From positions 32,001 to 96,000 of the IMG/VR virus record IMGVR_UViG_3300011113_000649: a stretch of DNA of 64,000 bases. One strand, 5' to 3'. The notes below the pieces were generated by a model. It was not told the DNA's origin and ran no database searches. It saw only the letters and a program-made list of their open reading frames with translations. The position numbers were made by a program, and so were the translations under genes. This document shows, one piece after another, positions 3,021 to 60,053 of this stretch. Each line of letters begins with the position of its first letter. The first letter of the stretch is position 1. This DNA is from a virus.

Positions 3021-3392
3021 TCAGAAAGCCACCGGTTCAGCTTCTTGAGCGGTTTTAGTCCTCTTGGTCTTAACAATCTGACCAAAATTATTAACTCTAA
3101 CCTTGATGGTACTATGCTTTACGCCATCTTTTTCCCAGCTATCATTCCTAAGACTGCCCTCAACCATTACTAAATCACCCTTCTTAAAAGACGACGCAAT
3201 GGCTTCGGCACCACTATCCCATGCTTCGCATTGAATAAAAGATGTTACCTTGTCTTGTGAGCCATTAGCCTTAGTAAACTCACGAGAAGTGGCGACCGTA
3301 AAGTTGACAACAGACGTTTGCTTGTCGCCAATATTGACGGTTCTTAGTTCAGGATCTCGTGCAAGATTACCACGTATCATAACAATATTCAT
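3021..3392 (-). CDS. ssb: Single-stranded DNA-binding protein
   Basis: MNIVMIRGNLARDPELR, KGDLVMVEGSL, C-terminal EPVAF; start placed at ATG 3392 after AGGAG. Confidence 0.95.
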   Translation of the reverse strand: MNIVMIRGNLARDPELRTVNIGDKQTSVVNFTVATSREFTKANGSQDKVTSFIQCEAWDSGAEAIASSFKKGDLVMVEGSLRNDSWEKDGVKHSTIKVRVNNFGQIVKTKRTKTAQEAEPVAF

Positions 3393-3433: not shown

Positions 3434-3462
3434 ATTATAACGTTCCCGTGGTGTGGCGTCAA
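3434..3462 (-). promoter_or_regulatory. sigma70-type promoter for ssb
   Basis: TTGACG-17 nt-TATAAT. Confidence 0.8.
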
Positions 3463-5078
3463 GTTCGTGCGACGTATGCTTTTTCTACCACAAAACTATC
3501 TTTGGTCCTCGACCTAGTTCCACACACAATAATAACATTTCCTGAGAACAATATAGATTTATATTTTTTATAAACCTCTGGAAAGAATATGACAGAATCC
3601 ACGGACCCTGTACCATCAGACATTGTGACAAAGCTCATTTCCTCGCCAGGAGTTTTTCCATTTTTTGTTTTAATTGCATTTATAAAGTCTATTTCACCAC
3701 CCATTATTAAGTTATTTGTATTAATACCATTCTTAAAATCTCTACAAGTAGTATTGGTCATGCTAATATCATACATATCAACTTTAGAACAAGTGATTGA
3801 ACATCCTAAATTAGAGTCCTCTACATCCGCAATCCACTCTGGATTATCATCCAAAGAATATGGAGGATTTTGTAACATAGTTATTGCATCGCTAATAATT
3901 TTTTTTCTGTTTTTATTACTTTTACCATTTATAAATAAATCATCTAAAGCTGTCTTAAGTGATGTATAGTTTTGAATATTCTCTATAATATATGCTGATT
4001 CTTTTTTTGTCAACATTGATATTATTTCATATTCAAATAACATACAAGTTCTGGTTTTATGTACAAAAGATACCGCACCACTTTCTATTAATGCTTTAGC
4101 TGCAGTTGAATTAATATTAATTAAAATCTTAAATAATATTTCTAACCACGATAATTCTAAAAGAGATTGATTTAATTCTAAAACAATTTTTTGCAGTTTA
4201 GTAAAAACAGAAGAGCCTACTCCCTTAATGTCTGTTAATCCGAAATAAATATCGTTATTTTTTAAAATAAAAAATTCATTCATTATTCTCAGATCTGGAG
4301 TTTTGATATTAACATCCATTTCGTTGGCGTTTTGCACCAAGGCTTTAATCTCTTCATGAGGATCAATTTTATCTTTTGCAAATCTTAGATATGAAGCAAA
4401 AAATACTTTGGGGAAGTGAGCCTTAGCATATGCCGATAAGTAAGCATTAATAGCATAGCTTACACTATGAGACTTATTAAATGAATATCTTTGGCTCTTC
4501 TCAATCCAGCCGAAAATTTGTTCGGCCTCGGACTGATTAACAATTTGTGTTTTTGTTACGCCTTCTAAAAATTTAGTCCTGATTTTTGCCATTTCTTCTG
4601 GTTTTTTCTTACCAATAGCCTTACGCAACATATCGGCTTCTTGTAAATTGAACCCAGCTATGTTCTTAGCAATTTCCATTGCTTGTTCTTGATATATCAT
4701 TTCACCATATGTGGTTTTTAGAATAGGTTCTAAGGCTGGATGAAAATAGTCTAAAGATTCTTCCCCATTCTTTTTATCTATATAATGATTTGTAACGCTT
4801 TTTCCATTACGAATCGCCTCTAGCGTACCCGGCCTTAGAATAGCAATCAGAGCGGACAACTGCTCTATATTTTCTGGTTTAAGTTTTTTAGCTATTGATC
4901 TACCTAGTCTAGATTCTAGCTGAAATATTCCTTTAGTATTACCATCACCAATAAGATTCCAGGTTCTAGAACAATCTAGATTTATTTTTTCTATAGATGG
5001 ATCAAAGCTAATACTCTTACCGTGATCGTCTACCAAATCAAAACAACAACCACAACTATAACTAAATTTTTTACTCAT
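3459..5078 (-). CDS. dnaE: DNA polymerase III alpha, C-terminal half (fingers, HhH, OB)
   Basis: GIFQLES, RPG, YQEQAM, ADMLRKAIGKK, YSFNKSH, IKGVG, OB fold; likely start ATG 5078. Confidence 0.92.
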   Translation of the reverse strand: MSKKFSYSCGCCFDLVDDHGKSISFDPSIEKINLDCSRTWNLIGDGNTKGIFQLESRLGRSIAKKLKPENIEQLSALIAILRPGTLEAIRNGKSVTNHYIDKKNGEESLDYFHPALEPILKTTYGEMIYQEQAMEIAKNIAGFNLQEADMLRKAIGKKKPEEMAKIRTKFLEGVTKTQIVNQSEAEQIFGWIEKSQRYSFNKSHSVSYAINAYLSAYAKAHFPKVFFASYLRFAKDKIDPHEEIKALVQNANEMDVNIKTPDLRIMNEFFILKNNDIYFGLTDIKGVGSSVFTKLQKIVLELNQSLLELSWLEILFKILININSTAAKALIESGAVSFVHKTRTCMLFEYEIISMLTKKESAYIIENIQNYTSLKTALDDLFINGKSNKNRKKIISDAITMLQNPPYSLDDNPEWIADVEDSNLGCSITCSKVDMYDISMTNTTCRDFKNGINTNNLIMGGEIDFINAIKTKNGKTPGEEMSFVTMSDGTGSVDSVIFFPEVYKKYKSILFSGNVIIVCGTRSRTKDSFVVEKAYVART

Positions 5079-5760
5079 TAAACGAATTCTTAAACTTAAC
5101 CTTTGAAGCAATATTTCTATGTAGTTTCATAAACCTGATCATAATTTCTGCGGTATCTTTGACGTCTTTAATAGCGTCATGAGCACCCTTTTTATCTATG
5201 CCAAAATATTCTCGTAAAGAATCCAGAGTATAACTTTTCAAGTCGGGATTGTGCTCAAACCAATAAAAAATTATATTCATTACGTCTATAACATCTCTAG
5301 GATAAAAAATATCAGATGTATTTTCTTTATTAGTATTACCATATTTTTGACTTAATCTATCTATAATTTTAAGATCAAATCTATTAATATTATATCCAGC
5401 AGCTATTGGTGCGCTAAATTGACTCTTCTTGGAAGATCTTGAATGATATTTATCTAGATAATTAATAAACATATTCCAAGACTGTTGCTGCTTGGGGTAG
5501 TTTTTCCATTCATTCAAAACATCGTCTTTAGAACAGCCTTTGACCTTTGAATGAAAATCTAAAATATCTGTAGTATATACATAATCATTATTTTGTTCCA
5601 AAACTTCTGGCTTAAAATTAATATTAAACTCTGAATTCGGTATAATTTCTAGTTTAATTGGATCAATAATTACGGCCGCAATTTGTACAGGACTACAGGC
5701 TTTAGGATCCGAGCCATCGGTTTCAAAATCAAAAACACAAATTTTGTTATAATTAATCAT
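5071..5760 (-). CDS. DEDDh 3'-5' exonuclease (DnaQ-like)
   Basis: DFETDG (ExoI), YNINRFD (ExoII), HDAIKD (ExoIII). Confidence 0.88.
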   Translation of the reverse strand: MINYNKICVFDFETDGSDPKACSPVQIAAVIIDPIKLEIIPNSEFNINFKPEVLEQNNDYVYTTDILDFHSKVKGCSKDDVLNEWKNYPKQQQSWNMFINYLDKYHSRSSKKSQFSAPIAAGYNINRFDLKIIDRLSQKYGNTNKENTSDIFYPRDVIDVMNIIFYWFEHNPDLKSYTLDSLREYFGIDKKGAHDAIKDVKDTAEIMIRFMKLHRNIASKVKFKNSFNE

Positions 5761-5935
5761 TAACTTGTACTACCGTGAGTGGCTTTACTTGAATAGCTTC
5801 TGTAGACTGCGAAGCGTTCACCGCGTTTAAAACTTTGCAGCAACTAATTCTTTTATCTTGAATCTTAATATATTCTGTTCCATTTAAAGTAAATTTATCG
5901 TTTACCTTTAATTCTTTAAATTCAATTTCTTTCAT
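5753..5935 (-). CDS. Small hypothetical protein
   Basis: 60 aa, AGGAG RBS, lies between dnaE-N and exonuclease. Confidence 0.6.
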   Translation of the reverse strand: MKEIEFKELKVNDKFTLNGTEYIKIQDKRISCCKVLNAVNASQSTEAIQVKPLTVVQVND

Positions 5936-5936
5936 A

Positions 5937-7805
5937 CTAGACTCCTTGTTGTAATAAAAATCTAATGGTCATAATTTTATCTAACATCGCAACACCTAAA
6001 ATATCAAACTTAATAATTCCTATGCTTTCTAGATCTTGCATTTCCATGCCAGCAATCAGTTGTTTATTTTTGCTATCGTAAACCATAGGACAAATTTCGT
6101 TTAATGGTTCAGAACTTATAGCGATTCCAGCCGCGTGTTTTGATTGATTTGATTTAGTTCCCTCTAGCCGTATCGCTTGTTCAAATCTTTTTGCTAGTGG
6201 TCCTTGTAGTTCTCCACTTTCATCAATATAGCACCACTCTTTGAGTTTGTCAACATTGTTTTCTAGTGACCAGCGAATGATAGAAGATTCGCCAGTTTCT
6301 TCTTTCATTTCTTGAAGTTCATCGGCTATTTTAGCTTCGTCAGGTATGTTTTTAGTAATTCTATTCATTTCCTCAAAGCTAACATTACCATATACTCTTA
6401 AAACGTCTTTTAGCGCCCCGCGTCCCTTAATGGTATTAAAAGTAATCATTTGAGAAACTTTATCATACCCATACTTATTTTTAATATATTCAATGATAAC
6501 TTCTCTCTTATCTATGGGAACGTCAACATCAATATCTGGCATACTAATATGATCTTCTGAATTACGTCCAGCATTATAAAATCTATCGAACAATAAATTA
6601 TATCTTATTGGATCAATACTAGTAATCCCAATTAAGTAAGAAACCAGACAACCAGCAGCAGAGCCTCGACCGGGTCCAGGTAACCAATTATTTTTTCTTA
6701 CAAAGTTCACTATGTCTTGTACAATTAGAAAATAACTCGACAGTCCAGCACCCTGTAAAACATCTAGTTCATATTTAATTCTATCTAAATATTCTTGTTG
6801 ATTATTTTTATCTATTACTGGATTAATTTTATCTCTCCAGCCTATTCTGCATAGTTCCCTGAGATATTCATCTGGATTCATATTTTTAGGACATTGAAAC
6901 GGTGGCAATTTAGGCTTATTTAGAATATTATAGTGTTCCACCAAATCCGCCACATAATTTGTATTTTCAATTTCTTGTGATGTATGAATTTCTTTCATTT
7001 CCTCTTGAGAAGGAATATGATAATTTTCTGAAGTAAAAAAGCAAGACAACGGCGTTTCTTCGTCATTACTAATTTTTCTACTAATTTCTGGAAATGTTGT
7101 TTTTAGGTTATTGCAAAGCAAAATCCTTTGATCTATTGCGTCCTCTTTTTTACAATAGTGAGCATCTGGAGTGCAAATAACTTTTGTATTAGTTTCTTGA
7201 GCTATTTTTCTGACAGCATTTGTTAAAAGTTCTTGAACTGGTAAATTTTGTTTATCTATCAGTTGAGCCTCTAAAAATACTTTGTCTTGAAAAATTTGCT
7301 TCAAATATTCAATATGTTTTTTACCAGATTCTAACCAGTTCTCTTTTAACTGATATGATTCTAAGATTTGGTCGGATAGAGTAGAGCCTAGATGTCCAGT
7401 AATAGCAATCAAATTTCCGCTATTTATTTTGGCTATAGCTTCTAGATTAAGTCTAGGTTTATGATAATAATGCTCTGGTTTGTTAGATTCAGAAACTATC
7501 TTAATAAGATCAAGCCAACCAGCATGATTTTGTGCAAGAATGATAAAATGAGCTAACGACCTATTATCTTTATCTTGAATGGCTGGGTCTTTTTCGCAAA
7601 TATATAATTCACAACCCAGGATCGGTTTAATACCAGCCTCTTTCATAGCGCTATAGAATTTAACAGATCCGGCAATATTGCCATGATCTGTCAATGCGCA
7701 TGATGATGCCCCTATCTCTTTGCATCTGGCGGCAATTTGTTCTGGTTGACTTAATCCGTCCAATAACGAAAAATGTGAATGTACATGCAGAGGAATATAG
7801 TTCAT
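5937..7805 (-). CDS. dnaE: DNA polymerase III alpha, N-terminal half (PHP, palm, thumb)
   Basis: HVHSHFSLLDG, TDHG, DAHY, GPGRGSAAG, MPDIDVD, KHAAG, KFDILG. Confidence 0.95.
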   Translation of the reverse strand: MNYIPLHVHSHFSLLDGLSQPEQIAARCKEIGASSCALTDHGNIAGSVKFYSAMKEAGIKPILGCELYICEKDPAIQDKDNRSLAHFIILAQNHAGWLDLIKIVSESNKPEHYYHKPRLNLEAIAKINSGNLIAITGHLGSTLSDQILESYQLKENWLESGKKHIEYLKQIFQDKVFLEAQLIDKQNLPVQELLTNAVRKIAQETNTKVICTPDAHYCKKEDAIDQRILLCNNLKTTFPEISRKISNDEETPLSCFFTSENYHIPSQEEMKEIHTSQEIENTNYVADLVEHYNILNKPKLPPFQCPKNMNPDEYLRELCRIGWRDKINPVIDKNNQQEYLDRIKYELDVLQGAGLSSYFLIVQDIVNFVRKNNWLPGPGRGSAAGCLVSYLIGITSIDPIRYNLLFDRFYNAGRNSEDHISMPDIDVDVPIDKREVIIEYIKNKYGYDKVSQMITFNTIKGRGALKDVLRVYGNVSFEEMNRITKNIPDEAKIADELQEMKEETGESSIIRWSLENNVDKLKEWCYIDESGELQGPLAKRFEQAIRLEGTKSNQSKHAAGIAISSEPLNEICPMVYDSKNKQLIAGMEMQDLESIGIIKFDILGVAMLDKIMTIRFLLQQGV

Positions 7806-9438: not shown

Positions 9439-10598
9439 ATTATCCTCTGAATATACTCTTTAATTTGATCGTTAATTTCTTGTGTACTCATTTCGCCAAC
9501 GTCGTTTTTAGAAATGGTTGGTATAAAAACTCTATATGTATTCTGACACTTATTTTTAATTTGTTCGGCTGCTTTTTTACCTGCTTCATCATTATCTGTT
9601 AAAACTATTAAAGTCATCGCACCAGAAGAGTCTAATAAAATTTTTTGTCTGTCACTAAGCGATGAACCAAAAATAGCTACACTATTGTGAATACCATTTT
9701 CTTCTAGTCTCCACACATTTCCCGGACTCTCAACAATGATTGCTATTCCGGTGTCATATATATGATCTTTAGCAAACCAGAAATTGTAAAGATAGTTTTG
9801 ACTTTTAAAGTCGGCACTATGCTTCCATTTTGGATATCCCCATTTTTTATCATCAGATGGACACAAATTAGATGTGTCGTGATAAGATGAGCACTTTGTA
9901 CATTTTTCAAAAATGCTGCGACCGGTACATCCTACCATATATTCATAATTACTATCATAAATAGGAACAACCACTCTTTGATACATTGGCTTAGACGGGT
10001 TGGCACACAGTCCTACATCATATCTCTGTAGTGTACTATCTTTATAGTTTCTATCTATATAATATTGCGCTGGAATATTTATAGCTTTTATTATTTGATT
10101 TCTAGTAATTCTACTGTCAGACTTTTCTGCTTTAGCGTTTATATAGTTGATAATATTAGTAAAATTATTTTTCTCTTTTTCTGTTTTAGATATTTTGATA
10201 CTACTTAGATCTTTATTTAAAAAAGCTTGAACATACTCTAGGGCTTCATTAAAGGAACAACTAGCATCTCCTGGTTCAGACCAATGATATTTTTGATGAG
10301 ATATGATACCTCTTACAAAACCAATAATTGAAGACTTGAATTCTTGCTCACAATTATGTGTGCGACACTTCCAATTGCCCCTATACCTGTCTCCGTCTGG
10401 ATATATATTGAGCGCCGATGGATTATCTCCACCGTGTATGGGGCAACTCATTGAAATCATCTTGGAATTATTTTTAAACTCTAATCCAAATGTATCTAAT
10501 AGAGTTTCTATATTATCACACAAATCATCGCATAAAACTTTGAGTTTTGATTGATCAATTGAAGGGTATTTCTTCTTCATCATAGTCTGCTTGTTCAT
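9435..10598 (-). CDS. dnaG: DNA primase (Zn finger + Toprim)
   Basis: CPIH...C...C Zn motif, IIVES, TDNDEAG. Confidence 0.85.
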   Translation of the reverse strand: MNKQTMMKKKYPSIDQSKLKVLCDDLCDNIETLLDTFGLEFKNNSKMISMSCPIHGGDNPSALNIYPDGDRYRGNWKCRTHNCEQEFKSSIIGFVRGIISHQKYHWSEPGDASCSFNEALEYVQAFLNKDLSSIKISKTEKEKNNFTNIINYINAKAEKSDSRITRNQIIKAINIPAQYYIDRNYKDSTLQRYDVGLCANPSKPMYQRVVVPIYDSNYEYMVGCTGRSIFEKCTKCSSYHDTSNLCPSDDKKWGYPKWKHSADFKSQNYLYNFWFAKDHIYDTGIAIIVESPGNVWRLEENGIHNSVAIFGSSLSDRQKILLDSSGAMTLIVLTDNDEAGKKAAEQIKNKCQNTYRVFIPTISKNDVGEMSTQEINDQIKEYIQRII

Positions 10599-31823: not shown

Positions 31824-32357
31824 TTATAAGGTAAAAAATCTCCACCTGTTATAATATTCTATTTCTGCGTCTGTGTGTATATGCTGTAGATAGTTTTTAA
31901 CCTCTAGCCAAGTAGAAAATATCATTTGGTGTGGGATAGTACCAAACAACCAATCTGGAGTTTGACTTTTTCCCTGCTCCATATGAACAATAATTGGTTT
32001 TTTAGATCTATTCGCTAAAAATATTTCTTCGTATGTTCCACACGGATGAATATCAAGATCTAGATTAACTATAATAAAATCGCTTATATCTACTAGTCTA
32101 AGATCAACGGCTCTGATAGTTTTCATCATTGCCGATAATTCATCATAGCGACCCATTTGTTTGAGTTTTGTTTTTATATGATGGGTATCATTATCTTCAA
32201 GACCTATATCTGTTGGTTTGCTAATAGGATTGAAAACTACAATACTTAAATTTTCTAAGAATGGAGTTATAGAATCTCGCCACCCAGTACCACGGTCTGC
32301 AACTCTATCCATAGCGCCAGCCAAATATACTCTTTGATTTGTAAGTCTTTGGTTCAT
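31824..32357 (-). CDS. Nucleoside 2-deoxyribosyltransferase-like protein
   Basis: VYLAGAM...WR...VFNP...DL...D...GTYEE. Confidence 0.75.
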   Translation of the reverse strand: MNQRLTNQRVYLAGAMDRVADRGTGWRDSITPFLENLSIVVFNPISKPTDIGLEDNDTHHIKTKLKQMGRYDELSAMMKTIRAVDLRLVDISDFIIVNLDLDIHPCGTYEEIFLANRSKKPIIVHMEQGKSQTPDWLFGTIPHQMIFSTWLEVKNYLQHIHTDAEIEYYNRWRFFTL

Positions 32358-40400: not shown

Positions 40401-40617
40401 TTTTATATTCTTTAATAGGTAAGATATTATTATCTTTGTCTAGTATATAAACTGGGTTAACTTCTATTATAGTATTACTGTCAAGCCATTTAGCATTTCC
40501 GTTCAAAAGACTATAACACAACTTTTTACCATTGGCCTTAAAGTCAGACGTTAATAACCAGTAGCTATTATCTAACTTAAATGTATCACCATTACTGATT
40601 TCCTCTAGATATTTCAA
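40378..40617 (-). CDS. Hypothetical protein
   Basis: Coupled ORF. Confidence 0.55.
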   Translation of the reverse strand: MKYLEEISNGDTFKLDNSYWLLTSDFKANGKKLCYSLLNGNAKWLDSNTIIEVNPVYILDKDNNILPIKEYKNENSKIY

Positions 40618-40808
40618 CTATATTCCTCCCAGTCCTCCCACTTTTCTTCTTCTTGCATTTCCTGAATTCTCTTTTTTATAGTTTGTTTATTTAGTTTTTT
40701 AAATCTTTGTTCTTCATTAAAATCACTAGATAATTTTCTATCTTTTTTTTTGCTATCTATTTTTTCTTTACGAAAAGATTTCCTGTCAAAACTATCAAAG
40801 TCTTTCAT
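40614..40808 (-). CDS. Small charged hypothetical protein
   Basis: Coupled ORF. Confidence 0.55.
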   Translation of the reverse strand: MKDFDSFDRKSFRKEKIDSKKKDRKLSSDFNEEQRFKKLNKQTIKKRIQEMQEEEKWEDWEEYS

Positions 40809-41015
40809 TTTATTTTTTTAGTTTTATGTTCTTCAATCCAAGAGATGAATTTTTGAATTCTAGTATGGCCTGACTGTTCATTATATTTGCTGTTGGGAGA
40901 TCTGTCAATAGCCACTACACAAGAATTTATTCCAGCAAAACGACTATCTATAAAAAAGACCATCATCACTATCTCCACCAGCAATTAAAAACACACATAA
41001 TATAGTCTTGATCAT
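40805..41015 (-). pseudogene. Deleted, frameshifted paralog of the trypsin-like protease
   Basis: MIKTILCV-FLIAGGDSDDGLF / IDSRFAGINSCVVAIDRSPNSKYNEQSGHTRIQKFISWI matches the C-terminus of 58176..58943; extra T in the run at 40952-40957 breaks the frame. Confidence 0.75.
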
Positions 41016-41024
41016 AAAATATCG

Positions 41025-41336
41025 TTATTTATAGGGTTTGTTTTTTATCTTATTTAGGTACAGTTCGCAATCTTCTATGACATATTTATTCCAGCTTTTA
41101 TAGTCCATTAAATGGCCAAATATAAAATGGCAAGGATCATCACACAAAGTAATCAGATTTGACGGATCTAGTTCTCTATCTGGATTGCAATGAACGGGTT
41201 CTATATGATGAACCTCTAATTTTTTATTTCTACCGCAAGCCGCACAAGTTGGCTGATTATTAAGATGTTCTTTTCTAACACTACTCCATTTTGGAGAACG
41301 GTAAGCAAATCTAAGAAATTTTTTGAATCCAAACAT
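41025..41336 (-). CDS. Small HNH endonuclease
   Basis: CAACG...VHHI.P...NLITLC...CH...GH. Confidence 0.85.
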   Translation of the reverse strand: MFGFKKFLRFAYRSPKWSSVRKEHLNNQPTCAACGRNKKLEVHHIEPVHCNPDRELDPSNLITLCDDPCHFIFGHLMDYKSWNKYVIEDCELYLNKIKNKPYK

Positions 41337-41986
41337 TATTGTTGTTCTTTAAACTCATAAAAATACAATTCTTCTTCGCTCTCGCTAATCCATCTACTAC
41401 CAGTATTTTCGCAACTGAATTCTAGACTAAATACTTCCCAATCTGGTTTTTTATCAAATTTTTTAACAATAAAACTACCGCCGTCCATCCAAAGCACCCT
41501 ATTGTTAGGCTGCAAAAAATATTGCCCACCAGACCCCTGAAAAAAATGTCCACACTTATGACCAGCAGACATTTCTCCATAGCCACTTTGATATTGTGGC
41601 CCCAAACACCAATCTATAGTAAATAGATATTTTGCTTTGTGTAGCGTTTTATCCTTAAGAAAGATATTTGCCGCTCTATTTTTAGAGTATTGGTCTATTT
41701 TGATAGAAGCATAATAACTAATACTATCCCACAGCTGAATCCAGTCTAATAAATAGTTTGACCCACCCGATTCTGTTGATCTTAAATAGTGAATTGGAAC
41801 TCTAGCGTGCTGACTACCATATTCGGTCATCACAGAAAATAACGCACATCTTTGTGGAATACTAGTGAAGTTAAAAACCTCTACCGCTATTCTTTCTGAG
41901 TTAACATCTGGAGGTTTATTGTAGAAAAAATTTGTATCTAAGTAGCAAAAAAAAGTAGGAGTATCTATATTTAGATAATTACTCAT
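41336..41986 (-). CDS. Conserved-looking phage hypothetical protein
   Basis: YLN...QLWD...YLFTIDW...HKC.H...QPNNR. Confidence 0.65.
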   Translation of the reverse strand: MSNYLNIDTPTFFCYLDTNFFYNKPPDVNSERIAVEVFNFTSIPQRCALFSVMTEYGSQHARVPIHYLRSTESGGSNYLLDWIQLWDSISYYASIKIDQYSKNRAANIFLKDKTLHKAKYLFTIDWCLGPQYQSGYGEMSAGHKCGHFFQGSGGQYFLQPNNRVLWMDGGSFIVKKFDKKPDWEVFSLEFSCENTGSRWISESEEELYFYEFKEQQ

Positions 41987-42984
41987 AACACTTTAGATGC
42001 TATTAAACACCCTTTAGAAACCGCATGTAGTGGATCTGAGGCGTGAACGACCTCTTTAACTGGTAATGGAAAATTATTTTGAGTCAATTTTTGTGCAAAT
42101 AATTCAATATATCCTTTTGCTTGTGATGTACCACCAGCAATAACAATTTTAAGAGGATTCTTAAATTTAGGAAGAGATTTATGATTAGTTAATGCAAATG
42201 CTAGCTGTTTTGTAGTATAATCAATTAATCTTTCATAATATGCCGACACAGCAGCAAGCACAGGATTCTCGTTCTGTTCACCGATTTTAAAATCGCCGCC
42301 CTCTTTCTCTGCTTGAACAACACTGTCTGTTTCTCCAGTGGCTACAGCACTCATGCGGTCGATCCAATCGCCAGACTTTGTTGTGCTAAAGACTACTGTA
42401 GGTTCGCCATTTAACATGACACACACATTTGTCATACCGGCACCACAACTAATTGCTATACCAGTATAGTCTTCGTTTTCTAATTCAGCATAGCACAAAG
42501 CTTCTGCTTCATTGATTGCTCTAGCATCATAGCCACACTCTGCTAATACTGTTTTAACCACATCTTCGTGATAGCCTACATCAAAATCTTCATCTTCTTG
42601 ATCAACTGGTTGTGCGGGGACACAAAATACTAATTTTTCTTCTGTCTCTGAAGATTGTCCGACTACTTCTTTTAAAATAAACGATAGGATTCTTTTTGCG
42701 TCTTTTTCTTTAGCGGACACAACCCCTCTATACATGGGTCTTTTGGCAGCGTCGTTTCTTTCTACGGCTTTTTCTATGGCATCCTTGCCCAAGATAATAA
42801 AAGATCCATCATTATCTTTAATAAATGTTTTTCCCGACAAGCCTTTTTCTATCATTTTTGTAGCAACTGGCGTTGTGGGCTTTATAATATAAAAAGCATC
42901 TCGAAAATCTTTATATTCTATATTTCCATTTTTTTCTTGCGATAAAACTATAAAACTTGTACCTACATCTAAGCCCTTAGCCAT
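41983..42984 (-). CDS. Actin-fold ATPase, volactin-like
   Basis: GLDVGT (phosphate 1), AINEAEA (connect 1), GAGMTN (phosphate 2), IAGGTS (adenosine), AVSKG (connect 2). Confidence 0.85.
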   Translation of the reverse strand: MAKGLDVGTSFIVLSQEKNGNIEYKDFRDAFYIIKPTTPVATKMIEKGLSGKTFIKDNDGSFIILGKDAIEKAVERNDAAKRPMYRGVVSAKEKDAKRILSFILKEVVGQSSETEEKLVFCVPAQPVDQEDEDFDVGYHEDVVKTVLAECGYDARAINEAEALCYAELENEDYTGIAISCGAGMTNVCVMLNGEPTVVFSTTKSGDWIDRMSAVATGETDSVVQAEKEGGDFKIGEQNENPVLAAVSAYYERLIDYTTKQLAFALTNHKSLPKFKNPLKIVIAGGTSQAKGYIELFAQKLTQNNFPLPVKEVVHASDPLHAVSKGCLIASKVL

Positions 42985-42988
42985 AATT

Positions 42989-43309
42989 TTACCTCTTTAA
43001 ATTTTTGAGTTTATTTACAGAATTAGAAATATTATCTTGTGTTTTTTTAACTTCTCCCAAAGAGTCGTATTTTTTTTCTAATCCTTCTGTTTTAATATCT
43101 GTTACAAACGTCTTATCGTCTATGGAAATAGAATTATTTTCTTTGGTAGTAGAATTTTGTTGTTTAAAAAATGATTTGGGCCGATCTGTAGATACACCAT
43201 TTCGACTAGAAGATAAGCCAAATAAATAGCCTATAATAAAAGTATTGACTATAACAATAGTACCAACAAAAATTATAATAGTGTTTATATCAATCATTGA
43301 TTCAGCCAC
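42989..43309 (-). CDS. N-terminally membrane-anchored protein
   Basis: IIIFVGTIVIVNTFIIGYLFG TM; polar linker; C-terminal amphipathic helix. Confidence 0.65.
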   Translation of the reverse strand: MAESMIDINTIIIFVGTIVIVNTFIIGYLFGLSSSRNGVSTDRPKSFFKQQNSTTKENNSISIDDKTFVTDIKTEGLEKKYDSLGEVKKTQDNISNSVNKLKNLKR

Positions 43310-43671
43310 TCATTATATTTATTTTTAGAATATCCTTTAATTCGAGATTTAGTTTTATCTTGAAAAATAATCCTAGAATCCGGAATAACAGATATGTCAT
43401 ATTTTTTCTTTAGATCTTCATTGTTATTGACGTCTATATAACATATAATATATTTATCAATAGCTGGACTAAGATTAAACGACAAAATATCATCCTTCAA
43501 GAGATTACAAAAACGGCAATCGTCAGTACCAAATATCAATAACATTGGCTTATTCAAAGAGTTAGAAATTCTTTGAGCATCGCCGATATCACGCATAATG
43601 AAAGTTTCATTAGCATAAGACTGTAACGAAAACATAGTTACTATAAACGCAAACAATATTATTTTGAACAT
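43294..43671 (-). CDS. Exported thioredoxin-fold protein
   Basis: Signal peptide; CRFC; VIP. Confidence 0.8.
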   Translation of the reverse strand: MFKIILFAFIVTMFSLQSYANETFIMRDIGDAQRISNSLNKPMLLIFGTDDCRFCNLLKDDILSFNLSPAIDKYIICYIDVNNNEDLKKKYDISVIPDSRIIFQDKTKSRIKGYSKNKYNEWLNQ

Positions 43672-44558
43672 ATTGCACCTATGATTCTACCCTTTTGTGT
43701 ACGATGAACAAAACCTTTTCTAACTAAATAGGGTTCGATACTATTTTCAATAGTTTCGATAGCAATACCAGTTAGAGAACTAATTGATTTCAAGCCCAAT
43801 GGATTACCCTTATTATTTTTTAAAACATCTAAATACATTCTATCATACACATCTAAACCATATTCATCAATACCTTGTAGACTAAAAATGTCGTGGATAG
43901 TTACACTATTACCATTGCACATCTTATAGTTTTTATACCACTGCAATCTTCCATTGAGAATTCTTGGTGTGCCTTTACTTCTTTTGGCAATTTCTAAAAG
44001 ATCTGAATCTGGTATGACTAATCCTAAATTACTAGAATTCAATCCTGCTAGTTTGGCTAGTTCATTATCGGTATAAAACGATAAATGTTCTTTAATCTGA
44101 AAACGATCATAAAATGGTTGGCTTAAACTACCACCGCTGGTTGTGGCCCCAACTAAGGTAAATGCTGGTATTTCTATTTCTTCAGGCTCTTTTTCGAGAA
44201 TAATATTAATTTTGAAATCTTCCATTACTGGATATAAAAACTCTTCAACTAGTTTGGGTAGGCGATGAATTTCATCAATAAAGAATACAGATCTTTTAGT
44301 CATTCTCATTAAGTATGGTAGAACGCTTTTAACACTTCTTAAATTAGCCGCGTTAGCAGTGTACAAATTTACTTCCATTTCTGTGGCTATAGCACCCGCT
44401 ATGGTTGTTTTACCAAGGCCAGGAGGCCCATCAATTAAAACATGGGGTAGGACGCTACCGCTTTTTTTACAGCCGGTCGTAGAGATTTTAAGGCGTTCAA
44501 CCACATCGGATTGTCCAATAATTTTATCAAAGGATGTTGGTCGTTTAATTGTTGACAT
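43659..44558 (-). CDS. ruvB: Holliday junction branch-migration helicase
   Basis: RP..FD.IIGQ, GPPGLGKTT, IDEIHRL, FTLVGATT, SKGTPR, EPYL, RTQKGR. Confidence 0.95.
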   Translation of the reverse strand: MSTIKRPTSFDKIIGQSDVVERLKISTTGCKKSGSVLPHVLIDGPPGLGKTTIAGAIATEMEVNLYTANAANLRSVKSVLPYLMRMTKRSVFFIDEIHRLPKLVEEFLYPVMEDFKINIILEKEPEEIEIPAFTLVGATTSGGSLSQPFYDRFQIKEHLSFYTDNELAKLAGLNSSNLGLVIPDSDLLEIAKRSKGTPRILNGRLQWYKNYKMCNGNSVTIHDIFSLQGIDEYGLDVYDRMYLDVLKNNKGNPLGLKSISSLTGIAIETIENSIEPYLVRKGFVHRTQKGRIIGAICSK

Positions 44559-44973
44559 TTAATTCTCCCAAATTTTGTAATATATATTTAATCAATAATC
44601 CCGCATGTGTTACAGGATGTTTTTCGAAAGCTTTTGTAGTCATTGATAGTGATTCTTGACTAGTAAAACCATATCCACATAAAATCTTAACGCATTGATT
44701 TTGTAGACTACTTGGTATAGTCTGAGTGGCTACTAATGGTTTTGGCGATAAAGTAGGCGTAACTTTGTTATCTGTTATATAGCATATATTCAGCTTGACG
44801 ATCTGTTTTGGTTTAAATATGTTACCGCAGTCACAAACCATTTTAAAGTTTTTTGTTTGTGCTTCTTTCAAAGATATCCAATGATCATAGTTGCACTTTT
44901 TGTCTGGACATCTATATTTCAAATGAACATCCACATCAATCGGTTTTAGGTTTTTCTTTTTCATTTTCGTCAT
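44545..44973 (-). CDS. Zn-finger protein with RuvA domain-III-like C-terminus
   Basis: CPDKKC...H...CDC; QCVKILCGYGFTSQES...LIKYILQNL resembles RuvA C-terminal helices; overlaps ruvB. Confidence 0.55.
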   Translation of the reverse strand: MTKMKKKNLKPIDVDVHLKYRCPDKKCNYDHWISLKEAQTKNFKMVCDCGNIFKPKQIVKLNICYITDNKVTPTLSPKPLVATQTIPSSLQNQCVKILCGYGFTSQESLSMTTKAFEKHPVTHAGLLIKYILQNLGELNVNN

Positions 44974-45361
44974 CTTTTACCCAAAAAACAAAATCATTTG
45001 ACTCATCATCAAATGCCATTTCTACCAATCCCTTTTGAACTAATCCATTTATAATATTACTTACCATTCTATCATTAAGTTTATGGACTATATCAGCAAA
45101 CATATCTTCGTTTAAGACATATCTAATTTTTTTAGTAATTTTATTTCGTTCTTTTTTAATATTCTCTTTGATTATCACTAAAGACTCTTGATGTGATAGC
45201 GTCTTGTCGAATTCTTCTTTTTCGTTATCTTTAACATCATCTATCATTAGATCTAAAACAGATTTATCTTGCCAGACTCCAAAATTATTATATACTATTG
45301 CCCTAGCTTTATCTGTAAATTCTGATAAGTTCGCAACGACAAACCATTGAGATTCTGACAT
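44936..45361 (-). CDS. Hypothetical protein, paralog of 61091..61486
   Basis: GLVEMAFDDESNDFVFWVK vs DLVECAWDDTLNEMVFWQK. Confidence 0.65.
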   Translation of the reverse strand: MSESQWFVVANLSEFTDKARAIVYNNFGVWQDKSVLDLMIDDVKDNEKEEFDKTLSHQESLVIIKENIKKERNKITKKIRYVLNEDMFADIVHKLNDRMVSNIINGLVQKGLVEMAFDDESNDFVFWVKDDENEKEKPKTD

Positions 45362-45370
45362 TTTTCCCCC

Positions 45371-45799
45371 TTAGTTTAAGATATCAAACAATCCTTTGTA
45401 ATAGTTTGGTTGTTGTATAAAGTGTTTAGCGTTTGATTGCAGGTGTAGTTTATACTCTTGATTTATGGGATCAAAAACAAAATATTTGCTTTTCCATATG
45501 GGTATACCACTATAATTGGATCCCAAATACTGGAGTTTTGAGTTGCTCTCAGTATTGGGGTTCCAACTATTCACAGGAAACACATACATAGGAAATCCAG
45601 AGATATTAGTTATTTTATAATCATTATTCTCTGGATTTTTAAGGATATCATTGATCATTTTGGCGATCCATTCTGATAACGGGGCATTATTTATATCAAA
45701 TTTGAAATAGAACTTATATGGATCGTATTGATCATTGTTATCATAATCATAATGATCGTCATCATATCCATCATCTTCGTCATCGTATGGATCATGCAC
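45371..45799 (-). CDS. Hypothetical protein, acidic N-terminus
   Basis: GTG start at 45799 after GAGGAG. Confidence 0.6.
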   Translation of the reverse strand: MHDPYDDEDDGYDDDHYDYDNNDQYDPYKFYFKFDINNAPLSEWIAKMINDILKNPENNDYKITNISGFPMYVFPVNSWNPNTESNSKLQYLGSNYSGIPIWKSKYFVFDPINQEYKLHLQSNAKHFIQQPNYYKGLFDILN

Positions 45800-45817
45800 A
45801 GCAAACTCCTCATTTAA

Positions 45818-45883
45818 AAGGGAATTAGGGAATCGAACCCTAAGACTTAGCACTAACTAGTCCAGTCACCAGACTATTCTCTT
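45818..45883 (-). ncRNA. tRNA-like element (T-arm and acceptor-like stem, no canonical anticodon arm)
   Basis: AAGAGAA-TAGTC TGGT GACTG-GACT AGTTAGTGCTA AGTC-TTAGGG TTCGATT CCCTAA-TTCCCTT. Confidence 0.5.
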
Positions 45884-45891
45884 GACCTTAA

Positions 45892-46755
45892 TCAGCCAGG
45901 ATACGAGTTGTCGTAATCGTCTTCGTCCTCATAATCTTCATTATCATCAAACTGATCCCAGTAATCGTCGCGGATATCATAATCCTCGTCATCCTCATAA
46001 TCAGCATACTCATCTTCTGAAAAGTTTGCCGAATAAAGAGGCTTGAGAAGTTCGCCTTGATACTCTCCAACAACTTCATATTGGCAAGTGCGAAGTTTCT
46101 CACAATTACAGTCGCTAGGAACACTAACTACATCACGAGGATTAATCTTTACGATAACAATATGATCACCAGCTTCTAGACTACCATAACCAGCAACATA
46201 ATTCAATGCACCAGCATGAAGACCATCAGAACAACCTCTGGCACGATCATCATCAACCTTGGCTCTTTGCATCTTGCAAATCTTGCCAACACTATTATCA
46301 AATACTCCACGATACTTGTCCTTAAAATCACTTCTAACAGCCTTATAGGCAAGGAAATGACCATCCTCAGTAATCGGCAGATGCTCATGCTCAAGGAAAT
46401 CATACAGTTCCTTTTGACTCTGCATACTAGGATTCTCCATCAGATTATTGAGAAAATTAACAAGAGGCTGAAAAGGTAGACCCTTGCTCATAAACTCAAG
46501 AATACGCTTGCTGATAGATCCATGAACAACCTCACCCTCATAGGTGACTTGACCATTCTTAATCTCAACAAGACCATCACTAAAAGTAGCCACAGCCTTT
46601 TCAACATCAACAATATCAAGAAGTTCATCTGCGGTCGCTGTTGGCAACGCCTCAATAATCATCTTGTAGTTAATATGATCTGGCAAAACCTGATAGGTTC
46701 TGTTATTAAGAACCAACGTAAGATTACCATCAACCCACATAAAAGGAACGCTCAT
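45892..46755 (-). CDS. rIIB: rIIB-like protein
   Basis: NPS...ELYDFL....LPITEDG.FLAYK.V, VDDD....CS.GLH, VKINPRDVVSVP.D....KLRTC.YEV; start ATG after AGGAG. Confidence 0.85.
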   Translation of the reverse strand: MSVPFMWVDGNLTLVLNNRTYQVLPDHINYKMIIEALPTATADELLDIVDVEKAVATFSDGLVEIKNGQVTYEGEVVHGSISKRILEFMSKGLPFQPLVNFLNNLMENPSMQSQKELYDFLEHEHLPITEDGHFLAYKAVRSDFKDKYRGVFDNSVGKICKMQRAKVDDDRARGCSDGLHAGALNYVAGYGSLEAGDHIVIVKINPRDVVSVPSDCNCEKLRTCQYEVVGEYQGELLKPLYSANFSEDEYADYEDDEDYDIRDDYWDQFDDNEDYEDEDDYDNSYPG

Positions 46756-51805: not shown

Positions 51806-51845
51806 TATATTTCCTTAAGGCTTGTTTCAATATCTACTAATTAAA

Positions 51846-51918
51846 TAAGAGCGGCGGGATTCGAACCCGCACTTGCGACATTTTAAGTGTCGTGTCTCTG
51901 CCGTTGGACTACGCTCTC
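51846..51918 (-). tRNA. tRNA-Leu(UAA), short variable loop, no encoded CCA
   Basis: GAGAGCG...CGACA CT-TAA-AA TGTCG CAAGT GCGGG TTCGAAT CCCGC CGCTCTT A. Confidence 0.9.
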
Positions 51919-51922
51919 ATAA

Positions 51923-59336: not shown

Positions 59337-59381
59337 CGTTACACTTTATTCTCCTAAAAATTTATTATTTTTATATTTTAA

Positions 59382-59737
59382 TGGAGGCGAGGGAAATCGA
59401 ATCCCTGTCCTATCATATTTCAAATTATATATTCTACAAGTTTATTTTATTCATAAATTAAATAGGATTACAGAACAAACAAGATTAATTCCTATCTTAT
59501 CGACTTCTCTTAACCTGCAACCCGTCGAACATTGTAGGTGCAGAGGGATTTAACGACAGACTTTTGATCCCTACCCTCATTCGGTATCGCAGTCTGTTAC
59601 TGCCCTTTTTTGTCAGGCAGCAAGTGCTAACTGAGTTTCGCCAGTTAAAGCGTTTAATCGACTTTTAAAGTGGCCTGTCGATCAACCACTACTTGCTAAT
59701 ATAATCTTCTTTATGTAGTCGAAACCTTTACGCCCCC
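59382..59737 (-). ncRNA. ssrA: tmRNA, tag (A)GETQLALAA
   Basis: 5' GGGGGCG..TTCGAC; 3' AGGGA-TTCGATT-TCCCT-CGCCTCC-A with G3-U70 pair; tag ORF 59613..59642 after TTAACT. Confidence 0.92.
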
Positions 59738-59949: not shown

Positions 59950-59971
59950 AATATGAAAACCTCTGCGTTAA

Positions 59972-60045
59972 TAGGGTGTGTAGGAGTCGAACCTACCTTT
60001 TGAATACCTTATAAGAGTATTTGCAACAACCGGCTGCAACACCCC
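59972..60045 (-). tRNA. tRNA-Ile(UAU), atypical short D-loop
   Basis: GGGGTGT/ACACCCT acceptor; ATACT CT-TAT-AA GGTAT; GTAGG TTCGACT CCTAC. Confidence 0.8.
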
Positions 60046-60053
60046 ATTTTTAT

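Follow-up and report, generated by a model that had tools for sequence, protein, structure and literature searches.

A volactin-family actin is encoded beside a predicted membrane adaptor in an uncultured phage lineage

The cytoskeletons known from phages are mainly tubulins of the PhuZ type, together with one DNA-gripping prophage actin, AlpC, and its adaptor AlpA. PhuZ belongs to nucleus-forming jumbo phages and is known from phiKZ-group Pseudomonas phages in culture (PMC4244570), while AlpC/AlpA of the Corynebacterium glutamicum prophage CGP3 is expressed early and is required for efficient phage DNA replication (PMC4446434). The volactin family of actins has so far been studied in one archaeon only, Haloferax volcanii, in which VolA (observed as VolA-msfGFP) forms dynamic filaments with tips contacting the membrane and determines cell shape in the rod-to-disk change (PMC10869688). 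The H. volcanii volactin gene HVO_2015 lies beside HVO_2016, which encodes a CdpA-like protein with four transmembrane helices; CdpA itself consists of a transmembrane domain, a disordered linker, and a small C-terminal domain and anchors the division ring (PMC12126565). Here, we describe a volactin-family actin gene (positions 41983..42984, minus strand) and, directly upstream of it, a gene for a predicted single-pass membrane adaptor (42989..43297, minus strand) in a 64,000-nucleotide stretch of viral DNA, referred to below as the window (positions 32,001 to 96,000 of the IMG/VR record IMGVR_UViG_3300011113_000649). We consider it probable, with some reserve, that the two proteins constitute a two-component, membrane-tethered phage actin cytoskeleton. 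In the literature on volactin, phage actin-like proteins, and actin homologs of phage genomes, we found no volactin-family actin described in phages, and the nearest published systems were VolA/HVO_2016, AlpC/AlpA, and PhuZ.

The actin gene encodes an actin-fold ATPase of 333 amino acids (aa). The protein matched the Pfam family Volactin (PF25216) over its full length (protein residues 1 to 329, model positions 1 to 320 of 321), with a score of 210.2 bits against a cutoff of 35 and an E value of 7e-62, and a six-frame search of the record gave the same result. The match to MreB/Mbl (PF06723) was confined to residues 59 to 209 and, at 24.6 bits, stayed under the cutoff of 27; no PHROG family was matched. 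A preliminary description of the window, made from the letters, had assigned the gene to the volactins rather than to MreB, ParM, or FtsA from short sequence motifs, and the assignment was borne out. In BLASTP, the protein aligned with a Haloferacaceae volactin (locus L159), an ortholog from GTDB genomes and not HVO_2015 itself, over the full length (332 columns) at 34% identity with an E value of 3e-66, and both proteins start with MAKGLDVGT, so the motifs cited in that description are real. The actin-fold motifs reported there were also present, and its three ORFs (actin, small upstream gene, and thioredoxin) were all located on the minus strand at the positions given. Among 68 diverse family members, all of which (68/68) matched Volactin, the nucleotide-binding residues were invariant, including D6, G8, and T9 (phosphate 1), E159 (connect 1), G181 and G183 (phosphate 2), G284 and G285 with T286 (adenosine), and G325 (connect 2). 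The gene is, by these data, a genuine full-length member of the volactin family.

The actin fold was evident in an AlphaFold2 model of the protein, which had a predicted local distance difference test (pLDDT) value of 97.2. The top structures in Foldseek were BeeR (8r2n), MamK (5ljv), and MreB (1jce/4cze), with E values of about 1e-14 and template modeling (TM) scores of 0.66 to 0.73, and a sequence search of the Protein Data Bank returned BeeR alone (E value of 0.0018). These three nearest solved structures are all filament formers; they differ from the phage actin in sharing only 16 to 20% sequence identity with it. MreB binds the membrane directly or via RodZ, and MamK acts on magnetosomes. 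On its modeled structure, the phage actin would belong among the filament-forming actins, polymerization being known in its family only for Haloferax VolA. Conceivably, the protein is instead an actin-fold ATPase that does not polymerize but serves, like PilM, the FtsA-type adaptors, or EutJ, as a chaperone, kinase, or scaffold, either monomeric or dimeric, at the cytoplasmic side of its membrane partner. PilN, a membrane protein, is bound by PilM through its N-terminal peptide, PilM and EutJ were among the structural matches, and polymerization of the phage protein is itself a deduction. However, PilM and EutJ gave a far poorer fit (TM scores of about 0.53, root mean square deviations of 8 to 10 Å), the Pfam assignment is firmly Volactin, and VolA, the founding member of the family, makes dynamic filaments in vivo; we thus regard this explanation as very unlikely. 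The preliminary description had raised the prospect of clustering with nonpolymerizing enzymes of the acetate and sugar kinase/Hsc70/actin (ASKHA) superfamily, and polymerizing actins were found to be the nearest structures.

Genes of this kind are abundant in environmental sequences. A database of 5.8 billion proteins contained 1,713 actin clusters with E values below 1e-5, the best 120 being 86 to 97% identical to the phage actin; after clustering at 50%, there were 939 actin representatives with E values of ≤1e-3, 278 of them below 1e-30. The close clade is represented in IMG/VR by at least 284 loci. A search with a degenerate DNA pattern taken from an internal part of the actin gene yielded 80 further viral loci, all of them homologs with 32 to 82% identity, on contigs of 4 to 411 kb; with the locus L174 added, 80 of 81 loci that were checked had a homolog. 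In the close clade, the actin was the most highly conserved gene of its neighborhood, with a median identity of 86%, compared with medians of 73, 46, and 36% for a RuvB-like protein, the adaptor, and a thioredoxin-like protein, respectively. Its ratio of nonsynonymous to synonymous substitution rates (dN/dS) against relatives was 0.03 to 0.07, with dS saturated. These data indicated that the actin is under very strong purifying selection.

A phylogenetic tree of 114 volactin-family and 3 MreB sequences was then inspected, which came from a quick IQ-TREE search with Shimodaira-Hasegawa-like approximate likelihood ratio test (SH-aLRT) support and used MreB alone as the outgroup, without MamK, ParM, AlfA, or salactin. 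The volactin family was split from MreB at 100% SH-aLRT by a branch of length 0.97. The clade of the window's actin was nested in a purely metagenomic clade of 20 sequences (99% SH-aLRT), separate from those of haloarchaea and Archaeoglobaceae, of Planctomycetota and Omnitrophota, and of Desulfobacterales and Patescibacteria. In tblastn, the actin matched only LR745208 (485 kb) and LR756511 (595 kb), two uncultured huge phages, at 33 to 35% identity, and these fell into two other clades of the tree. Judging from this separation, volactin genes therefore occur in several distinct phage lineages.

Several family members have unusual architectures. Two metagenomic volactins of the phage clade, P0122 and P0130, are about 700 aa long and contain an intein with a LAGLIDADG endonuclease (matches to Intein_splicing, LAGLIDADG_3, and Hint_2), located just before the phosphate-2 motif in P0130 and some 20 residues past it in P0122. 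In the metagenomic protein P0176, the volactin domain is fused to Wzz/GNVR and a ParA/MinD-like ATPase, an arrangement comparable to that of polysaccharide copolymerase tyrosine kinases. The bacterial relative P0142 gave a weak N-terminal match to a ParB helix-turn-helix domain (E value of 3.5e-4; 21.1 bits, under the cutoff of 22.6). Unexplained extensions of 130 to 580 aa are present at the N terminus of many bacterial homologs; an interpretation of such longer homologs as adaptor-actin fusions was rejected, as they have no transmembrane helix and no tail motif. Tandem actin-fold genes were seen at locus L133, in an Omnitrophota metagenome-assembled genome, where a volactin gene (3992-4984) is followed by one for a 482-aa protein (5016-6464) with a volactin-like C terminus.

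The adaptor open reading frame (ORF) stops 4 nt before the actin start. It encodes 102 aa from an ATG at 43297; an alternative start, a GTG at 43309, would give 106 aa. Because homolog comparison and the database gene call favor it, the ATG, which overlaps the stop codon of the preceding thioredoxin gene as ATGA, is probably the true start. The preliminary description had seen in this product an N-terminal transmembrane helix, a flexible linker, and a C-terminal helix, and AlphaFold2 and the homolog alignment agreed with it. A transmembrane helix was predicted at residues 8 to 37 in the 106-aa numbering (43199..43288, minus strand; pLDDT of about 95), followed by a linker without predicted order and then by the conserved tail, residues 59 to 106 (42992..43135, minus strand), in which residues 94 to 105 form a basic amphipathic helix (...SVNKLKNLKR). 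I63, I72, K100, and L101 of the tail were invariant among 49 adaptor homologs, whereas the linker varied and the N-terminal segment was variable in sequence and hydrophobic in all homologs. No Pfam or PHROG family matched the adaptor. Its 641 clusters in the 5.8-billion-protein database were all unannotated, and the ESM Atlas returned only unnamed viral clusters. In two related phages (L066 and L080, 4848-5996), the adaptor frame was continuous with that of an upstream trypsin-like protease, representing either a fusion or a lost stop codon.

Synteny was then counted over the 80 related IMG/VR loci. An adaptor homolog, 36 to 70% identical, was found immediately upstream of the actin gene at 79 of them, the exception having no ORF at that position. 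The pair is thus coinherited; a lack of such coinheritance was among the outcomes that, according to the preliminary description, would have refuted its proposal of a membrane-tethered filament. A RuvB-like AAA+ ATPase gene (43659..44558, minus strand; RuvB_N, 154.6 bits; RuvB_C, 72.2 bits) lies upstream of the pair at 76 of the 80 loci. Between RuvB and the adaptor, the window carries a gene for a predicted exported thioredoxin-like protein (43294..43671, minus strand) with a CxxC motif, a hydrophobic signal-like N terminus, and a Thioredoxin_2 match of 31.6 bits. The preliminary description had listed this protein as a neighbor of the actin; it occurred at only 33 of the 80 loci, and we rejected it as a component. 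Likewise, the 216-aa gene downstream of the actin was present at 6 of the 80 loci and is not part of the module. The pair belongs to a series of closely spaced genes on one strand, located after the RuvB-like and rIIA/rIIB genes. The run that comprises a 142-aa gene (44545-44973), RuvB, the thioredoxin, the adaptor, the actin, and the next genes was searched for regulatory signals, and no clear promoter or terminator was found within it. On these grounds, the actin-adaptor pair is probably coexpressed with replication and recombination genes and could serve in replication or assembly. Farther downstream, an HNH-like gene (41025-41336; 103 aa) follows the 216-aa gene, and a perfect TTGACA-17-TATAAT promoter-like site lies at 40908-40880 (minus strand), about 430 nt beyond it.

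From these features, we reasoned that the pair could work as follows. The actin would bind ATP and, by analogy with Haloferax VolA, most likely polymerize into dynamic filaments. The adaptor would be a single-pass inner-membrane protein with a few residues beyond the membrane and a floppy cytoplasmic linker, the topology being predicted, and its tail of about 48 residues would dock onto the actin through the basic amphipathic helix. The membrane would in this way become the place where filaments are nucleated, capped, or retained, and the filaments would extend across the cytoplasm of the infected cell, where the pair would probably organize the site of phage DNA replication or assembly. The same docking logic operates when the ParR C-terminal helix binds ParM and when the PilN peptide binds PilM. 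A further resemblance is to phage phi29, in which the membrane protein p16.7 and the host MreB organize replication. Complex prediction for the actin with adaptor residues 40 to 106 gave values of 0.68, 0.61, and 0.70, compared with 0.55 when an unrelated protein replaced the actin, so the score is unspecific and was counted neither in favor of binding nor against it.

Host reshaping or a block of division is a serious alternative to this organizing role. The actin and its anchor would then disrupt or replace the envelope-building or division machinery of the host, for instance, to block division and enlarge the cell for a bigger burst. T4 rIIA and rIIB are membrane associated, and rIIA and rIIB genes lie close to the module; the adaptor, moreover, is predicted to be membrane bound and not DNA bound. 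Two archaeal precedents point the same way, since VolA sets the shape of H. volcanii cells and CdpA, whose paralog HVO_2016 is encoded beside volactin, anchors the division ring. This reading, however, likewise depends on filaments and on tail binding, no domain resembling a host-protein interaction domain is visible, and it is a recombination gene, that of the RuvB-like protein, that accompanies the module at nearly all loci. We consider a takeover of this kind unlikely on balance.

Improbable in our view is a ParM-like segregation system in which the actin moves phage genomes, for instance, in a plasmid-like carrier state, and the upstream protein is a DNA adaptor. A two-gene cassette of an actin and an adaptor is typical of ParM/ParR and AlpC/AlpA (PMC4446434), the adaptor tail is rich in lysine, and in P0142 the weak ParB-like match is fused to a volactin. 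Against this, the adaptor has a confident N-terminal transmembrane helix and no recognizable DNA-binding domain, and neither integrase nor plasmid maintenance genes were seen among the annotated ORFs. A search of positions 40500 to 46000 detected no iterated centromere-like repeats, only coding acidic repeats, and a partition system of the ParMRC type is therefore disfavored.

The proposal of a membrane-tethered actin was further examined through the neighbors of other volactins. In haloarchaea and Archaeoglobaceae, the same-strand gene directly upstream of volactin encodes a membrane protein of 250 to 350 aa with a DUF7139 domain (50 to 158 bits), which in H. volcanii is HVO_2016, and haloarchaeal neighbors contain VAGLKGLKGG-type motifs about 55 residues before their end. 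The Planctomycetota neighbors are coiled-coil proteins without a transmembrane helix, with the C terminus LAKLKKLKGGG. In one Desulfobacterales genome, the product of the gene just downstream of volactin ends in ...LGEVKKT...VERLKAFKK, and the neighbor in LR745208 has the C terminus ALKAVRKK. When a hidden Markov model (HMM) of the phage tail was run against 8,953 ORFs from 82 cellular and huge-phage loci, the Desulfobacterales partner was detected with an E value of 2.5e-5. Thus, a basic tail motif of the φxxLKxLKG type, as read from these sequences, recurs beside the volactins of haloarchaea, Planctomycetota, one Desulfobacterales genome, and LR745208. In an IMG/VR sample drawn blind to the neighbors, the tail motif, scored as L[KRSAT]x[LMAIVF][KRQ][GKRNQ] in the last 30 residues, was found in 30 of 64 upstream ORFs versus 2.6% of 962 background ORFs. 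In hhalign, adaptor residues 58 to 106 aligned with residues 205 to 247 of the haloarchaeal partners (numbered in the first sequence, 307 aa) with an E value of 2.6e-4 and a probability of 42%. We tentatively extend this, with more doubt than conviction, to the view that the φxxLKxLKG tail would be a universal volactin-docking peptide and that volactin and a tail-bearing tether would make up one ancient module of haloarchaea, Archaeoglobaceae, Planctomycetota, and many large phages. In phages, the tether would then have been reduced to a single transmembrane helix, leaving a self-contained, membrane-anchored cytoskeleton for use in infection.

Several points weigh against a membrane-tethered filament system and its docking tail. 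The residue at the phosphate-2 position is a serine, Ser179, throughout the family, where MreB and actin have aspartate. No DUF7139 domain was matched in the phage adaptor, leaving homology with CdpA-like proteins unproven. The phage-tail HMM detected no other cellular partner, the haloarchaeal one having an E value of 1.5, and the hhalign probability for the haloarchaeal tails was only 42%. The enrichment of the tail motif in the neighbor-blind sample is indicative only, as the motif was defined post hoc and many of the loci share ancestry, which makes the statistic overstate their independence. Seven other upstream ORFs of that sample end in a WxIPDF...FGK tail; since several phage clades have either that tail or a nonmembrane partner, tethering is not family-wide. 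Furthermore, polymerization, tail-actin binding, membrane topology, and expression timing are steps that we infer, as is the role in infection, which is drawn from gene order and analogy alone.

A distinct arrangement was observed in an LR756511-like clade (L163, 4762-4992; L176, L182, L183, L196, L216, L219, L233, L247, and L252). The upstream partner there is 72 to 83 aa long, lacks a transmembrane helix, and has a conserved C-terminal WxIPDF...(K)IxFGK. At most of the loci, a further conserved ORF lies downstream, of about 80 to 160 aa (about 150 in most) and with the motif ...FHRFDSCLMSLKKI....

Among the published systems, VolA/HVO_2016 resembles the phage pair most directly. Both actins belong to PF25216 and have the same nucleotide motifs, and, as in the haloarchaeal loci, a same-strand membrane protein with a transmembrane region, a disordered linker, and a small conserved cytoplasmic tail is encoded upstream; the tails of both partners contain a φxxLKxLKG-like motif. 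In contrast, HVO_2016-type partners have four transmembrane helices (DUF7139) in about 300 aa, whereas the phage adaptor has one in about 100 aa and no DUF7139. The phage gene is also virus encoded rather than a gene of an archaeal cell, its clade branches apart from that of haloarchaea and Archaeoglobaceae, and archaeal rod-to-disk morphogenesis is impossible as its function.

Other systems share only parts of this organization. AlpC had been described as actin-like well before volactin received its name. Like the phage actin, AlpC is a phage-borne actin-like protein with an upstream adaptor, with which it is cotranscribed, but AlpA binds phage DNA (PMC4446434) whereas the adaptor described here is a predicted membrane protein; the two were likened by description, not by sequence. 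The PhuZ spindle is, as proposed here for the volactin, a phage-encoded dynamic polymer that organizes the infected cell, but its fold is that of tubulin, and no gene is dedicated to anchoring it in the membrane (PMC4244570). A bacterial actin with a small adaptor and the same proposed docking logic is found in ParM/ParR and Alp7A/Alp7R. The short C-terminal helix of ParR inserts at the end of the filament, into a groove of the actin. ParR differs in that it binds centromere repeats and is encoded downstream of parM, whereas the phage locus has no such repeats, its membrane-embedded partner is encoded upstream, and its actin belongs to another family.

The phage volactin is present on hundreds of uncultured phage contigs (4 to 411 kb), coupled to a dedicated putative membrane tether. 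If filaments and tail docking hold true, the pair would represent a new means by which phages organize infected cells. With 333 aa plus about 100 aa, it would further serve as a minimal model of how a volactin filament attaches to the membrane, and it would suggest a candidate motif by which the interaction of HVO_2016 with VolA could be tested. Should the tail be a universal docking peptide, the system would be to actin what the PhuZ spindle is to tubulin, in a phage lineage that is abundant and uncultured.

The IMG/VR virus record that contains the window is 105,553 bp long, with a CheckV completeness estimate of 76%. Nearly all genes of the window lie on the minus strand. Recognized genes of phage type include, in addition to rIIA, rIIB, and the RuvB-like ATPase, those for a primase, a DnaB helicase, and a RecA/UvsX-like recombinase; a DnaE-type polymerase in two pieces, a ribonucleotide reductase, and many glycosyltransferases were also recognized. 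Megablast with 10 kb gave no match, and no cultured phage is close. Neither Terminase_6C nor T4 Gp23 was found in the record, and ten large ORFs from its upstream 32 kb had no PHROG or Pfam match; the phage assignment is therefore based on IMG/VR, the rIIA and rIIB genes, and the replication genes. Upstream of the window, record positions 1-28134 hold about 28 kb of plus-strand genes, including one ORF of about 3,240 aa that extends from position 9646 of locus L295 to position 3380 of locus L296, and this block is probably a very divergent virion module.

A full-length transfer-messenger RNA (tmRNA) gene was identified at 59379-59737 (minus strand; Rfam RF00023, 122.5 bits), for which ARAGORN gave the tag peptide GETQLALAA, and transfer RNA (tRNA) genes were located at 59971-60046 [tRNA-Ile(TAT)] and 51845-51919 [tRNA-Leu(TAA)]. 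The tmRNA and the two tRNAs may aid in finding the host. The DnaE-type DNA polymerase III alpha is encoded by two minus-strand ORFs, 3459-5111 and 5937-7805, which cover positions 42 to 611 and 613 to 1055 of PHROG 405, respectively. Between them lies an ORF of 229 aa (5071-5760), possibly a mobile insertion.

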